NCBI GenBank assembly: GCA_026023565.1
Contig: JAPETS010000004.1
Coordinates: 186,001 to 250,000, forward strand
Direction: 5' to 3'
Length of the DNA stretch: 64,000 bases
Source: Cirrosporium novae-zelandiae
Lineage: Eukaryota
The notes beneath the pieces were generated by a model. That model searched no databases, was not told where the DNA came from, and saw nothing but the letters and a program-made list of their open reading frames with translations. Below, piece after piece: positions 14,591 to 19,910 of the stretch. Within the stretch, counting starts at the first letter, position 1, and each line of letters opens with the position of its first letter. The position numbers and the translations under genes are program-made.

Positions 14591-16589
14591 TCATACTGCC
14601 AGCCCAGCAGATTCCATCTGTCTAGGTTCACCAGCGGCTTCAAACGTGCCATTAGGCAACCATCTAATCCCCTGCACAGCACTCAAATACGAAGGCATCT
14701 CGGTAGCATTATGATTCAGATTCTTTAGAAACGAGATCGTGCTAGTATCGTAAGCGGATTCATGAAACATTAAATTCGGCATGAGCTGGTCGTGGAATCT
14801 GGGCATTTCGAGAGCTGCGGGGACATTCATATGGTGGTCGAGAACGTGCCAGACGCATTGGAGGGTGGAGGTTATGATGCGGGAGCCTCCGGCGGCGCCG
14901 ATGATTAGGTAGGGGAGTGGAGAGGAGAGGGAGTGTGTGGCGATGATGGGGGTGATAGAGGAAAGAGGACGTTTTCCGGGGCGGATGTAGTTGGATGGGG
15001 AGGGGACGTAGCCGAATATATTAGTTGTGTTGGGGATAGAGAAGTCTAGAAATGAGGGGGTGGATTAGACATGGCTTGGTGGATGGATGGAGAAAGCTTT
15101 AATACCGTTCATCTCGTTGTTCATTATAATGCCTGTCTCTGGCACCATGACTTGAGAACCGAACCAGCCGTTAATAGTCGTGGTCATAGTGATCGCTAGG
15201 CCACTAGCATCTGCAGTGACAATATGGGAAGTTCCGTGACTATTAGTGATGGGTAAGTATCTGCTTAGATAGATAAAACAAGGACAACGTACGTCTCCCT
15301 ATTTTCGAAACCCGAGGGATTGTAAGCGGAGACATTGAGCGTAGAAAAGTCGGATATCATTCCACGCATACGCACAGTTTCCTTTCCACTAGTCATATTT
15401 CGTTCATATTGATCAATATATTCATCAAGGAATGATGGATCTCCTAGTTCACTTCGCTTCCCATATGCAAATCTCGTAGCTTCCACTAGACGATGAGTGC
15501 TTAAATTTAGCATGTCAGGCTCTTCAAAGCCCTGAAACCCCTCCACAATTTTCAGCGCAGATAAGAGAGTGGTTCCACTAGATGGGGAACCCATACTCGT
15601 CACTCTGTGACCTCGATAATCAATGCTTACAGGTTCTCGGAGAACAACGCTATAGTTGGCGAGATCTTCCATGGTCATTGTTCCGTTTGATGCTTCTAGA
15701 GCCGCGATCATTGTTTTGGCAATGGGGCCTGCGTAAAATGCATCGGCTCCCCACTCCGCAATCGTCTCGAGTGTCTGTGCGAATCTTTTCCGTGTCATTA
15801 TATCGCCTAATCCTAACAGAGTACCATTCGGAGCAAAATCCATAGCCCAGGATGGGTCCAGGGTAAGGAAGTTGTGACCTCCTAGCTTGATTGTGTCATG
15901 CATAATACGGACTAAATCGGCATTCACAGGGAATCCGTCGCGTGCTACTTTTATGGCAGGTTGAAAGACAGTTCGCCAGGGCAAGAGGCCGTAATGACTG
16001 TGAAGATACTCCAGTCCGCGAAGTTCTCCTGGAACACCACTTCTTCGAATTAGCAATTATAACTAGCACGCAAAGATATAAATAGCCAACCTAGCCAACC
16101 CTCCAGTGACCGACCCTTCTACATTACTTTTGTACATATCTTCAAATGCAGCCGCGGGAGCAGTTTCCCTGAAATCGATTGCCTCGTATGTTCCATTGGG
16201 AGACCTCACAAGCATAAAGCCTCCGCCTCCAATGCCACTGTGGTACATTCCTAGATCCGTTGCTTAGTCGTGTGGCAAGGTAAGGGAGATAGGACTGGAT
16301 ACCAATGACGCCCACGCATATTGTCGTTCCTATAAGCTTTCGCAAGTTAGCTTGGAAGCATAAATAGGCAATAGATACTTACAGCATCAGCAGAATTCCC
16401 TCCTTGTTTAAGGATATCGATGCCGATCTGGCTGCAGATGGCATTTTCAGAAGCTACCGCCCCTAATTTGGTTTCGTCGGCTCCATTGCCATCCTGGAGA
16501 ATAACTTGAGCACCCGATGCCGGATAGGCAGCCCCAAAAGTTATGAGGAGCTGCAGAAGAGCCAAGACAAGAGGGAGAGGTTGCAGCAT
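14591..16589 (-). CDS. Gamma-glutamyltranspeptidase (signal-peptide bearing), multi-exon
   Basis: LGAVASEN..CS.IG..IL..GGN.ADA, MYHSGIGGGGFML, IDFRETAP, GVPGELRGL, HGTSHIVTAD (catalytic Thr), RPGKRPLSSI, GAAGGSRI; hydrophobic N-terminus. Confidence 0.95.
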
Positions 16590-17094
16590 GATGTCAAGTA
16601 ATTATGGCACTCTTTAAACGGCTATACCGTTTCTCCCCGGGCTTGAAGTTACGTGCTTGCATGGTGAAAAGGTGAAATCCACTAAAGATATTGATGATGG
16701 GGGAAAAGCGTGCTCGGACTCCTGATAACAAAAGCTTTAGTGAGCAAGTAGTCGCGTGGTCTTATCGTTCCCCGTTAATAGGCACCATAAGCTTCTAGAA
16801 AGTTATTTGTTTGATGAATGAACTTAAATAACTGATAAATATAAAAGCTAAAAGTTTAATTATGAATAAAATTTATATTGTCGTTGTACATAATTCCGAC
16901 TATGTTTTATTTAATACTATAACTACCTAGGTATCCTATCAACACGGCCCTCATCCAAATGTCTACGAGAGGCAAAAAAAAAACACCTTCATGATTGGAA
17001 ACCAACACCTGCTTTATCCAACCGCCAAATATTAACCAAGAATGCTACCTCTGTCCGTTCCATGATTTGCCTTTCCTACTACACGTTCCGCTTT

Positions 17095-18282
17095 TTATGA
17101 CTGATCATCCCCATGGACTGGTAAGATTCGATCCTCCGGGTTTATCTCCGACATCGTTAAAAGTTGGATCTGATCGAGGCTTTCAACTGCAATACCTCCT
17201 TTCGAAGCCCTAATTATATCTGCTTTTTGCGCTTTTTTGATTTCTCCCGTGCACTTATTCCATAAATACCCCTCCTTTAACCATTTCCATGTCAAGTATG
17301 CCCTTAACTCCTTATCGCTAGGCAAAACAACTCTCCATTCCCCCTTGAAATCTATTTCGTCTTCGTTTAAACCTCTTAGTTTATCACGACAGAAGATTCG
17401 CCAACTATCAATAGCATAGGGCCCAATCCCTGGCAGATGAGCGATTTCCCAAGCTACACGAGGATCATCATCAGGTACTATTTCTCCCTTCGGAATATCT
17501 TTACCATTTTCCTTCTTTGGATAATGTAATCGCCGGTATCGCTTTCCTTTTTCTGGGGGGTACAATAGCCATGTTTTTGCAAGACTGATACATTTAAGGG
17601 ACCGTGCATTTTGTAAGCCAAGAGATCGAATCATGTTTGTTAACTCAATGGGGTCTGCGCTAGCTAGATCCTTGACCGTCGGGTAACGTTCTAGTACTGA
17701 ATATAACACAGGCAATGCCTGCTCACCTTTGGTTTTGGTCAGGAATATGGTTGCCATCAGCAGCTTAAATGGCTGATCGGCTAATTTTTCTTGAACCAAA
17801 CCAAAAAAAGAAGCGGACAATGGAGGAAAGGGGAGACAGGACACTGGCTCTGACCTTTTCTTTGGCTCTGTAGGGAAATAGGGAGATTTCATAAACCGAA
17901 TTGTACTTTTTCTGGGGGTGGATGCTGATGCGGGACGCCCCCGCTTCGGTGAAATTGAAGGAGTATTTTGGCTTATGGGCGAAGGCGTTTTTGGGGAGAC
18001 GGTTAAGCTAGATGGATCTTGGAGTTCATCTCTGGGAGCAGAAGGATTTGTGCCTAATGTCTCTGAAAGGGGCGAGGAAGCTTCTGTGGATACCATATCA
18101 TGTGTTCTAGTTTTAGGCTCAGTAGAATCCGAGACTATGCTAGATTGTTCTCCTTGAAAATCTTCAAATGTGCAGGGCTCAATCACTGATAACCCCGAGG
18201 ATTGCGATGGAGATCTGGGAGTGTCCAGAGATTGACTCTGGTATGGAAAATACTTAGACATCTCCTCATCACTGGCAGTCAC
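17095..18282 (-). CDS. HhH-GPD DNA glycosylase domain ORF, MBD4-like (probably the C-terminal part of a frameshifted gene; first ATG at 18261)
   Basis: FGLVQEKLA..PFKLL.ATIFL.KTKG, IRSLGLQN.R, WEIAHLPGIGPYAIDSWRIFCRD, EW..VLP.DKELRAYL.W. Confidence 0.88.
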   Translation of the reverse strand: MTASDEEMSKYFPYQSQSLDTPRSPSQSSGLSVIEPCTFEDFQGEQSSIVSDSTEPKTRTHDMVSTEASSPLSETLGTNPSAPRDELQDPSSLTVSPKTPSPISQNTPSISPKRGRPASASTPRKSTIRFMKSPYFPTEPKKRSEPVSCLPFPPLSASFFGLVQEKLADQPFKLLMATIFLTKTKGEQALPVLYSVLERYPTVKDLASADPIELTNMIRSLGLQNARSLKCISLAKTWLLYPPEKGKRYRRLHYPKKENGKDIPKGEIVPDDDPRVAWEIAHLPGIGPYAIDSWRIFCRDKLRGLNEDEIDFKGEWRVVLPSDKELRAYLTWKWLKEGYLWNKCTGEIKKAQKADIIRASKGGIAVESLDQIQLLTMSEINPEDRILPVHGDDQS

Positions 18283-18284
18283 GC

Positions 18285-19910
18285 CTAATGAATCATCGGG
18301 ATGTTGAAACCCTCCTTAACAGCAGTGTTTTTATTCCCTAGTGCCTTCTTTTTTGTCTTTCGCTTCTTGCGGCTCTTGGCATTGGGAACCTCTGGCTGCA
18401 GTGTGTTATCCGCCATTTGGTCTCTGATCTCTGATGAGTCGAAAATGCTTTCAGAGTCATTATTTTGCTTGTCGTCATGTTTGCGCTTTTTTTTGTGCTT
18501 TTTATGTGGCTTTTCGGTGGAAACGCTGTCTCGGGATTCCGTAGTTAAGCTTGATGGTAGTATTTGCTTCTTTTTGGTTATTGATTTTTTAGTACTTGTC
18601 TGAGCGAGGTTGACTCCAAACATTGGTTCTAAAGGATCTACCACATCTGCTAATGTTCCATCGTTTCTTTCTTTCACCGGCACATGACTTGGCGTATCTT
18701 GTCCTTGTCGCTCATTGGTTTCACGTCGTCTCTTCTTATTCTTTAGCTTTTCTTTCATGTGAGTTCCGCCAACTATCTCCCCGATTTCCGTAGATATGTC
18801 TCTATCTAGCCTAGCCGGTGTGCCTTGAGAGGATATTTTATCCGCAATCCCATGATCTGGATTTTCATACGGAGTCTTTGACCGATCAGATGCACGTGCT
18901 TCAGGTCGATGTTGCTTCTTCCTATTAGGTTGGAACTCTTTAGGCAGCCCACAAGTGAAATTGTCATTTAGCGGGGAGTTTGGTAGGTTACAACTCAAGG
19001 TAGGGCTTGAAGTTTTGAAATCTTTCGGGTTCGATCGGATGTCCGTGCTTTTTGCTTCTTTAAGAGCATCTGTCTTCTGCGGAGCTGGAGTTGTGGTAGG
19101 AGATGTTGCAGGGGAAACGAGCGATTGATACTTCGGGACACTCTTGACTTGAGAAGCGCGCTTTTTAATAGAACAGCCCTCTTTTATCGAGTCTTCAGGG
19201 GAGCATTTGCGTTTTCTACCGGCGCTATCTCGGTTGACTGTCTTTAATGTTGGGGTTTGATGCACTGTGCTAACTTTTTGAAATGGATCTAACTCCTCAC
19301 AACGAAGTTCATAGAAGCTTTTGAAAGGAATCTTGTTAATTGATATATCCACTGCAAACTCTGCCTGCTTGTAAGCATCATTTCGCCTCTTGTCTAGATC
19401 CTTCGACTTAATGGTTAGATCAGTAATCTCCAGTCCAAAACTAGAAGAATCTGTTTCATATCCGAGATCTTTGACACCCGGTCTTTTGTATAGGAGTCGC
19501 CGTCTAGCGTCTCTCGAAACCACATTGCAGTATTTTCTAACGCACTTCATAAGTCGCTTTAAGCCATTTTTATTCAGGCCTATTATTGTTGCAGCGAATG
19601 TACGAAGGTCGCCTTCAAACCGTCGGCGTTCCGTCGTCAAGTGAGGATAGACAAGCTTCTTGATGAAGTCGTGAGAGCGAATGTAGTTCAAGATTTTGTG
19701 CCGAGCATAATAGAGATCTTCATCGAACATATTACCATCAGCCTCAGCGAGTTCCAGTTCATCCAATTTCTCGTCCGGTGGAGCAAGAGCTTGTAGAAGA
19801 TTAAAAAATTCTTCGTCGATCTTAGAAGTATCATAGCATTGATAAAAACTCCCGTTTCCATCTGAGGTGGGAGGTCTTGAATGCTGAGAGACCAGTGCTG
19901 GATGAGGCAT
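18285..19910 (-). CDS. Lys-rich, probably nuclear 541-aa ORF (upstream part of the MBD4-like locus)
   Basis: Intronless long ORF with several basic NLS-like clusters; ends ...KEGFNIPMIH* only 2 nt from the GTG start of the glycosylase ORF, which is in the -1 frame. Confidence 0.75.
   Translation of the reverse strand: MPHPALVSQHSRPPTSDGNGSFYQCYDTSKIDEEFFNLLQALAPPDEKLDELELAEADGNMFDEDLYYARHKILNYIRSHDFIKKLVYPHLTTERRRFEGDLRTFAATIIGLNKNGLKRLMKCVRKYCNVVSRDARRRLLYKRPGVKDLGYETDSSSFGLEITDLTIKSKDLDKRRNDAYKQAEFAVDISINKIPFKSFYELRCEELDPFQKVSTVHQTPTLKTVNRDSAGRKRKCSPEDSIKEGCSIKKRASQVKSVPKYQSLVSPATSPTTTPAPQKTDALKEAKSTDIRSNPKDFKTSSPTLSCNLPNSPLNDNFTCGLPKEFQPNRKKQHRPEARASDRSKTPYENPDHGIADKISSQGTPARLDRDISTEIGEIVGGTHMKEKLKNKKRRRETNERQGQDTPSHVPVKERNDGTLADVVDPLEPMFGVNLAQTSTKKSITKKKQILPSSLTTESRDSVSTEKPHKKHKKKRKHDDKQNNDSESIFDSSEIRDQMADNTLQPEVPNAKSRKKRKTKKKALGNKNTAVKEGFNIPMIH

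Follow-up and report, generated by a model that had tools for sequence, protein, structure and literature searches.

How does a cell make the catalytic part of a DNA glycosylase whose reading frame opens just before an upstream frame closes, one register away from it? The question is raised by a locus on the minus strand of a 64,000-nucleotide (nt) stretch of Cirrosporium novae-zelandiae DNA (GenBank assembly GCA_026023565.1, contig JAPETS010000004.1, positions 186,001 to 250,000; this whole stretch is called the window, and positions are counted within it). Two open reading frames (ORFs) meet there. ORF1 is open from 19970 to 18285 and encodes 541 amino acids (aa) from the ATG at 19910 (coding positions 18285-19910), its 3' end reading GTT AAG GAG GGT TTC AAC ATC CCG ATG ATT CAT TAG, with the TAG at 18287-18285. 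ORF2 (17095-18315; 406 codons and a stop) begins right after the TAA at 18318-18316, the last stop in its frame, which is -1 relative to that of ORF1. The ORFs overlap by 28 nt (18315-18288), and within the overlap lies the heptamer G_GGU_UUC (18312-18306), an X_XXY_YYZ sequence in 0-frame phase. A slip there would join 535 residues of ORF1 to 403 of ORF2, giving 938 aa with the junction ...KEGF/QHPDDSLGVTASDEEMSK; the junction peptide predicted for this genome is ..EGFQHPDDSLGVTASDEEMSK. A preliminary description of the locus had proposed programmed -1 frameshifting of the ribosome (-1 PRF) from these features, and on re-reading every coordinate it gave for the two ORFs, their overlap, the phased heptamer and the 938-aa junction proved correct. 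The evidence set out below makes it highly probable that -1 PRF at G_GGU_UUC gives rise to two products, the 541-aa protein and a 938-aa glycosylase fusion.

What such a shift would add is an enzyme. ORF2 matches 15 MBD4 glycosylase-domain sequences, human and mouse, in the PDB, the best at E 2.6e-17; the MBD4-like HhH-GPD domain occupies 17281-17826 (ORF2 residues about 164-345), and the segment G-I-G-x-Y-x-x-D-S-[YW]-R-I-F is kept (GIGPYAIDSWRIFC aligned with GIGKYGNDSYRIFC) together with its Asp, which we take to be the catalytic residue. The Pfam HhH-GPD model scores 23.5 bits on ORF2, under its cut-off of 26.2. As for an N-terminal methyl-CpG-binding domain, Pfam returned no family in ORF1 or in six upstream ORFs of relatives; by these comparisons the gene is MBD4-like in the glycosylase domain alone. 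The ORF1 protein is basic and predicted to be mostly disordered: the ESM Atlas gave no usable match, its model having a predicted local distance difference test score of 0.34 and template-modelling scores all at or below 0.34. Both a whole-library HMMER search and a word-index search for relatives of ORF1 returned the ORF1 protein itself only. Over residues about 30-190 this protein bears a weak similarity to the upstream ORFs of the relatives described below and to the N-terminal half of an Aspergillus fumigatus protein, P0001 (889 aa). That half aligns with ORF1 residues 46-165 (pairwise E 9e-10), and the C-terminal half of P0001 aligns with ORF2 residues 4-391 (E 7e-102), from QHPDDSLGVTASDE onwards, upstream of the Met encoded by the ATG at 18261.

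Other homologues place the junction at the same point. A search for longer homologues yielded 184 proteins at E <=0.001, and many of the 120 listed are Aspergillus or Penicillium models of about 830-940 aa. A search for homologues of near-equal length yielded 828; 25 of the 120 listed are ORF calls starting 1-6 residues before a conserved GF-x(3-5)-[DN][DS]..[VM]T..DE..SKYF, and the glycosylase frame thus opens at the same place in those genomes. The trans-frame peptide of the window, KEGF-QHPDDSLGVTA, aligns without a gap to ORF-called continuous homologues from other collections: P0099 (KASGFQNPNDSAGVTA), P0106 (SDSGFPNPNDSVGMTA), P0109, P0057 and P0085.

Is the break a property of this genome or of the gene? 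Metagenome contigs scanned with an alignment of ten such proteins yielded 79 fungal loci. By an nhmmer profile of the junction, 30 of these carry a conserved element some 60 nt long, in 13 distinct sequences or, counting the window, 14. The gene is split 0/-1 as in the window in 12 of these 14: the window itself, L001, L003/4/5, L009-15 with L052, L016/26, L017, L018/21, L022, L023, L027-30, L031/32/36 and L035. In these split loci, which like the other loci with this element are termed type A, the upstream ORF is open for 266-814 codons and ORF2 for 359-597. The remaining two lineages, L070 (775 aa) and L024/25 (838 aa), are continuous, the ORF2 frame running through the element, and in their N-terminal parts they show homology to split upstream ORFs (L017 with L024c, E 6e-30; L009 with L070c, E 3e-18; database of 13 sequences). 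That two lineages read through the same element indicates that the fused protein is the functional product. Between related pairs, substitutions in the ORF2 frame are strongly biased to third codon positions (40/40/137, 36/26/93 and 51/62/132), and by this measure ORF2 is under purifying selection; the bias in the 0 frame of ORF1 is weaker (71/58/111 and 65/54/82), and flat (82/84/87) for the gapped pair L001/L023. The preliminary description had suggested that upstream ORFs in other filamentous ascomycetes end in [D/G]FxxPMI[Q/H]*, and this ending is real: SGFHSPMIQ* in L009/L016, QGFQSPMIR* in L027 and HFQIPMI* in L018/L021. Other lineages stop earlier, in DF*, GF*, GFH* or DFQ*. As far as the edge of the heptamer, L001 and L023 have RYGPLSPDPKEWDSDF* and RFGPLSPNPAEWEMDF* in common in the 0 frame.

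An assembly indel, or a recent frameshift mutation making a pseudogene of the glycosylase, would be a rival account, and the overlap does hold short GGG, TTT and CCC runs. An independently assembled Logan contig is identical to the window over 17900-18700 (0 other letters, 0 gaps, word depth 360), with the qualification that it comes from the one run containing the stretch, possibly the assembly's own source. The same break recurs in the 12 type-A junctions and in 13 distinct junctions of a second kind (type B, below), by -1 in all 25, and the ORF2 frames concerned are open for 359-1117 codons with the strong third-position bias just described. Orthologues are thus not simply single continuous ORFs, and the chance that error or decay accounts for the break is negligible.

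Where, then, must the frame change? The 12 type-A junctions carry G_GGU_UUY (7/12), G_GAU_UUY (4/12) or G_CAU_UUU (1/12), in every case inside the ORF overlap. Seven are thus fully canonical, and the other five keep only the A-site slip on U_UUY. The codon before UUY ends in U in all 12 (GGU, GAU or CAU), which makes this a conserved synonymous site. A phased XXXYYYZ would arise by chance in 28 nt with a probability of a few per cent (an estimate from about 8 phased positions at about 1/256 each); the heptamer goes beyond chance because it is kept in 12 distinct junctions. PMC5009743 places G_GGU_UUU with the heptamers most prone to shifting and gives G_GAU_UUU as the shift site of pea enation mosaic virus. 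The stop codons set limits independently of the heptamer's letters. Across the 12 junctions, 3-129 nt separate the last -1-frame stop from the heptamer downstream of it, and the 0-frame stop comes 0-24 nt after the heptamer; the tightest 5' limit is that of the window (TAA 18316-18318, 3 nt upstream), and the tightest 3' limit is found in L001, L003, L017 and L023, where the 0-frame stop follows directly. Combining these stops from different species leaves about 10 nt, in essence the heptamer itself, for a shift that occurs at one place in all of them, and no room for an intron.

The same frame change could in principle be made in the RNA, by loss of 3n+2 nt through a spliceosomal or Ire1-type intron or by gain of one U through transcriptional slippage, and annotated Aspergillus models do bridge the junction: P0001 (DATTNN-TDDSQS) leaves the 87%-identical ORF call P0130 (LDSGFLK-TDDSQG) exactly 5' of TDDSQ. 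More generally, the annotated Aspergillus and Penicillium models P0001, P0005, P0009 and P0011 (about 860-940 aa) disagree with each other, and with the ORF calls P0127 and P0130, exactly at the junction; these differences look like introns forced by the predictor to bridge a frameshift. We listed the GT/GC-AG pairs of 30-400 nt that would restore the frame in the window and scored them for a GTRAGT donor and a YTRAY branch site. None of the 191 pairs has a donor matching GTRAGT at five or more of six positions, only one has a branch-like site (with a GC donor, 392 nt), and the candidate GT positions are not conserved among relatives, so that no credible frame-correcting intron was found, in line with the preliminary description, which had seen no consensus donor or branch site for one. 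In 12/12 junctions the 0 frame is open to the heptamer and the -1 frame from it, and the continuous homologues align gapless; neither would be expected with a piece of the region taken out. Nor does the hairpin described below, with its loop RUGACN, resemble Ire1 sites, which have CNGNNGN loops. The T run at the heptamer has 3 nt in two cases, the window and L017, and 4-5 nt in the others, and runs of 3-5 nt are too short for efficient polymerase slippage. Correction at the RNA level therefore keeps only a very slim chance.

Two separate cistrons would dispense with frame correction altogether: the glycosylase would start at the ATG at 18259-18261, on an internal transcript or by reinitiation, and ORF1 would be an independent gene. 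The protein collection stores exactly such a pair for this contig, of 541 aa (P0121) and 388 aa (P0122, from this ATG); the ATG is in frame, P0123 and P0145 also have Met at this position, and stand-alone glycosylase genes with no adjacent upstream ORF do exist (L002, L007, L008, L020, L034, L044/L046, L075 and L078). The Met is not conserved, however, the aligned residue elsewhere being V, K, T, A or R, and coding conservation in the ORF2 frame (GF-QHPDDSLGVTASDE..SKYF) reaches 17 codons upstream of the ATG, exactly to the heptamer. There is no intergenic space, the break is by -1 in 25/25 distinct split junctions, the heptamer and a 3' structure are conserved, and natural in-frame fusions exist. 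All this makes an arrangement of two cistrons quite unlikely. The tests that the preliminary description had named against its own proposal (an assembly indel, continuous orthologues, a frame-correcting intron, a glycosylase start at 18261) all favour -1 PRF as far as they were run.

What lies 3' of the heptamer? The 13 distinct sequences of alignment A2 (11 split, 2 continuous), folded with RNAalifold, share a predicted element in which the heptamer is followed, 5' to 3', by a 6-nt spacer, a CC/GG pair of base pairs, an asymmetric internal loop (RAUGAU in its 5' strand against UGA in its 3' strand), a stem of 4 bp, a small bulge, a stem of 3 bp and a 6-nt loop containing UGAC. In the window the spacer is AACAUC (18300-18305) and the stem-loop, defined by the consensus fold and pair counts, spans 18264-18299. 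CC 18299-98 pairs with GG 18265-64; the bulge GAU occupies 18297-95; the internal loop sets G18294 against A18266, A18293 against G18267 and U18292 against U18268; UCAU 18291-88 pairs with GUGA 18272-69, and GGC 18285-83 with GCC 18276-74, closing the loop GUGACU (18282-77). The 0-frame stop TAG 18287-85 lies inside the stem-loop. The spacer is 6 nt in all 11 frameshift-type rows of A2, its letters varying; in the window, five of its six bases could pair with 18262-18258.

This corrects the hairpin first drawn for the locus. Its inner GGC/GCC stem around UGAC stands and covaries, while its outer UCAUUA/UGAUGA pairing is 3 nt out of register: that +3 slide is 70% paired with a covariation score of 0.219, as against 0.601 for UCAU/GUGA. 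The proposed extension of ACAUCCC with GGAGAUGU does appear in the minimum-energy fold of the window; across relatives only its CC/GG is fixed. The misgiving that the hairpin begins 14 nt after the heptamer, beyond a typical spacer, falls away, the invariant CC/GG pairs beginning after 6 nt. The break, heptamer and covarying stem are thus conserved together, 12 distinct junctions having both the heptamer and the 3' element.

The nine firm pairs are paired in 97.4% of cells, compared with 79.6% in shuffles (0/500 shuffles reach it), and cells with double changes number 21 where 7.3 are expected (0/500); registers slid as controls are 28-70% paired. The comparators are metagenome contigs, many of them near-duplicates, and kinship inflates such shuffle statistics, which weighs against taking them at face value; we judge the covariation real nonetheless, because the slid controls are low and the pair types varied (U-A/A-U/G-C, G-C/C-G/U-G and C-G/G-C/U-A). 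Further contacts are less certain. The loop GAC (18280-78) is complementary to a downstream GUC (18257-18259), the three pairs holding in 13/13, 13/13 and 12/13 sequences with no covariation; this may be a short pseudoknot or, in the window, part of an extended basal stem. A fixed extended basal stem was considered and rejected: most sequences can be extended, the remaining extension pairs form in about 65% of cells, and their register is not constant.

The internal loop is the most constant part of this element. A kink-turn consists of a three-nt bulge followed by tandem G.A and A.G pairs, between a Watson-Crick C stem and an NC stem (as set out in the available text of PMC5061560). All 13 sequences have the corresponding C stem CC/GG, bulge RAU, G.A at 1b.1n and A.G at 2b.2n, and the NC stem covaries; position 3b.3n is U.U in 11, C-G in L003 and A-U in L035. 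The CC/GG pairs are fixed in 13/13 though the codons change, the NCC codon specifying P, S, A or T and always ending in CC; the codon after GAG likewise varies (E, V, A, G or D) with a first base that is always G (13/13). The agreement being one of sequence, the internal loop matches the signature of a simple kink-turn, and we lean, without great confidence, towards its folding as one. Folding induced by ions requires that 3n be G or 3b be C (a rule taken from the available text of PMC4382518), by which most of these sequences are predicted not to fold with metal ions by themselves but to need protein. A search of 18100-18450 against Rfam found nothing relevant, with one chance match at E = 5.

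Does the junction always use this element? Sixteen more distant loci (13 distinct, and L037, which is cut by a contig end) have a different conserved element at the same ORF1/ORF2 junction, here called type B (alignment A3; for example L057:3359-3432, L058:3557-3630, L061:3674-3747 and L053:2045-2118, with 9 further loci). Its slip site is N_NNA_AAR (G_GGA_AAA, U/G_UCA_AAA, G_UCA_AAC, G_UUA_AAA, G_GCA_AAA or G_CAA_AAA), after which come 6 nt of spacer and then a stem CCACUCGUAG/..GCGAGUGG with the 0-frame stop inside it; the loop CCAGG is complementary to a downstream CCUGG, and by its pairing the whole looks like an H-type pseudoknot. In 13/13 a long upstream ORF is again followed in the -1 frame by a long downstream one (389-1117 codons), and L058 has an ORF1 with homology to the upstream ORFs of type A (E 3e-13). 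The type-B structure is 91.3% paired, as against 23-48% in slid registers; it is mostly invariant, so that covariation is weak (9/500 shuffles reach it). Single folds of L057 and L058 reach -22 to -23 kcal/mol (z about -2.4) and that of L061 -17.4 kcal/mol (z -0.81). Several of these distant loci had been candidates for continuous long ORFs, a reading dropped on finding that their long ORF2 begins at the type-B cassette.

The other 33 of the 79 loci comprise 22 with too little upstream sequence, the 9 stand-alone genes and 2 with a -1 arrangement lacking a clear signal. In these last two (L056:1441-1600 and L064:3901-4060) an upstream ORF is followed by a glycosylase ORF in the -1 frame, and neither a heptamer nor a structure can be recognised; L056 contains GTAAGC as a possible intron donor and a remnant resembling CCAG...CCCUGGA. 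The continuous type-A lineages differ in what they retain. L070 (3591-3675) keeps the whole hairpin and a phased G_GUU_UUU, at which a -1 slip would lead to a stop five codons on and hence to an ORF1-only product, the inverse of the logic proposed for the window; in L024 (3777-3859) the phased heptamer is lost, one stem pair is broken and the loop is changed. As to neighbours, a gamma-glutamyltranspeptidase (GGT) gene (PF01019) lies directly downstream of the glycosylase on the minus strand of the window (15268-16601; E 5.8e-64 for 15268-16056). The annotated relatives P0007 and P0042 have gamma-glutamyltranspeptidase and glycosylase joined in one model, and L003, L023 and L035 have the end of a GGT-like ORF upstream of ORF1 instead.

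We propose the following sequence of events. One mRNA would carry both ORF1 and ORF2. Most ribosomes would stop at TAG 18287-18285 and release the basic, disordered 541-aa protein. A fraction would slip back one base on G_GGU_UUC, tRNA-Gly passing from GGU to GGG and tRNA-Phe from UUC to UUU; C18306 would then be read twice (GGG UUU CAA...) and reading would go on in the -1 frame, to yield a 938-aa fusion whose C-terminal part is the MBD4-like DNA glycosylase. The slip would be promoted by the conserved hairpin, the invariant part of which lies 6 nt downstream and includes the internal loop with its kink-turn sequence. We infer the slippage and its efficiency from this arrangement, and the short product may have a separate role.

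Several observations weigh against this proposal, or at least against parts of it. A search of sequencing runs gave no RNA run with the locus, and the continuous, unspliced transcript, the shift and the fusion protein are all deduced from DNA sequence. P-site re-pairing would be poor for the G_GAU and G_CAU variants of the slip site. The stop at 18285 leaves 1.2 kb of RNA downstream, and exposure to nonsense-mediated decay is possible. The similarity among ORF1 proteins is weak, and the E-values for upstream ORFs refer to a database of 13 sequences. The hairpin is of modest stability: folds of 51 nt range from -9.5 to -18.6 kcal/mol, z for the window is -2.15 at 51 nt and -0.34 at 73 nt, and eight relatives give z between -1.37 and +0.61. 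Of nine sequences, five have the consensus as their minimum-energy fold and two have it in part, whereas L001 and L023 do not; such modest single-sequence predictions are consistent with a hairpin that is weak when naked. The nucleotides of the element specify, in addition, a conserved peptide, ND(S/T)xx(V/M)Txx(D/V)E, and the stand-alone gene L020, which has no ORF1, encodes a similar peptide (IPTNDLGMITDDE) near its start. Part of the nucleotide conservation of the element is therefore conservation of protein, and the junction motif probably matters at the protein level too. Finally, L070 needs no shift and yet retains the hairpin in full, so that this hairpin may have another or an additional role.

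Could the frameshift be regulated? The kink-turn might fold only on binding an L7Ae-family protein (Snu13, L30 or similar) or some other factor, which would set the efficiency of frameshifting in trans; such a switch would date far back in the Pezizomycotina, with at least one replacement, at the same junction, by an unrelated cassette of A-run and pseudoknot. We regard this as a speculative extension, and rather doubtful. Were it true, the ratio of a targeting-only N-terminal protein to the full glycosylase would be set by a cellular RNA-binding protein, and a cellular gene would for the first time have a -1 frameshift switch that responds to a protein. The kink-turn itself, if it forms, would offer a simple system for learning how a small protein-binding RNA motif stalls a eukaryotic ribosome.

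Extension of proteins by -1 PRF is almost confined to viruses and to genes derived from retroelements. If -1 PRF operates as proposed, filamentous fungi would gain with this locus a second and independent gene family of the kind, one in which the catalytic domain of a DNA-repair enzyme could be obtained only by shifting. Its two cassettes, in-frame fusions and stand-alone forms make up a natural mutational series. Hundreds of genomes probably carry a wrong annotation of the real product, stored calls splitting the gene and annotated models appearing to force the junction. Our literature search, which did not cover the list of 14 Podospora candidates mentioned next, turned up neither frameshifting reported for a fungal glycosylase or MBD4-like gene nor a frameshift stimulated by a kink-turn. 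That list belongs to the Podospora genome paper, whose available text mentions 14 genes possibly needing frameshift or read-through (PMC2441463); an orthologue might figure there.

The closest known case is PaYIP3, a Rab-GDI displacement factor of Podospora anserina and other Pezizomycotina, which is expressed by -1 PRF from a gene without retroelement origin (Malagnac et al. 2013, PMC3777964). The available text presents it as the first cellular case unrelated to a retrovirus, and the statement in the preliminary description that such signals are very rare in cellular genes can be kept with this one published precedent in filamentous ascomycetes added. From what that text describes, the two systems have much in common: a cellular gene of filamentous ascomycetes, ORFs in 0/-1 relation, a U-rich site, a nearby conserved structure with compensatory changes (a pseudoknot in PaYIP3), conservation across classes with the arrangement altered in some lineages (some having changed frame in PaYIP3), and a trans-acting factor, suggested for PaYIP3 by its authors. 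They differ in that PaYIP3 has its conserved enzyme-like part upstream and a poorly conserved extension, while in the glycosylase gene the conserved enzyme lies downstream and would be reached only via the shift; in the latter, moreover, the heptamer is canonical, the invariant structure begins at 6 nt and there are two cassettes. PaYIP3 frameshifting was shown experimentally, ours is argued from sequence. Mammalian PEG10 and PNMA (Ma3) also extend a protein by cellular -1 PRF and are cited in PMC3777964 as derived from retroelements, unlike the fungal glycosylase gene. On the side of function, the available text of PMC2360052 describes human colon cancers in which a frameshift-truncated MBD4 without glycosylase domain acts as a dominant negative. 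By analogy, this is a possible parallel to the role of a fungal ORF1-only product.

Among viruses, barley yellow dwarf virus and red clover necrotic mosaic virus have -1 PRF sites of the same heptamer kind beside a stop codon. In these plant viruses the 0-frame stop may directly follow the heptamer, as it does in L001, L003, L017 and L023, and pea enation mosaic virus 2 uses the same heptamers, G_GAU_UUU or G_GGU_UUU, next to a stop codon (PMC5009743 and PMC4737148, available text). The plant viral sites serve polymerase genes and depend on large bulged stem-loops and long-range pairing, in contrast to the small hairpin of this nuclear repair gene. Cardioviruses (2A) and arteriviruses (nsp1beta/PCBP) provide protein-stimulated -1 PRF, with viral factors and longer spacers. 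If the fungal kink-turn were bound by protein, its stimulator would likewise be an RNA-protein complex, and L070 has the cardiovirus heptamer G_GUU_UUU. The proteins in question would be those bound by the 5' stem-loop of U4 snRNA and by box C/D kink-turns (Snu13, 15.5K or L7Ae), whose strands, as given in the available text of PMC5061560 and PMC4382518, are like those found here, CC-RAU-GA-U with U-GA-GG; the difference is that in the glycosylase gene the motif, recognised as a match of letters, stands inside a coding region, beside the site of the shift.

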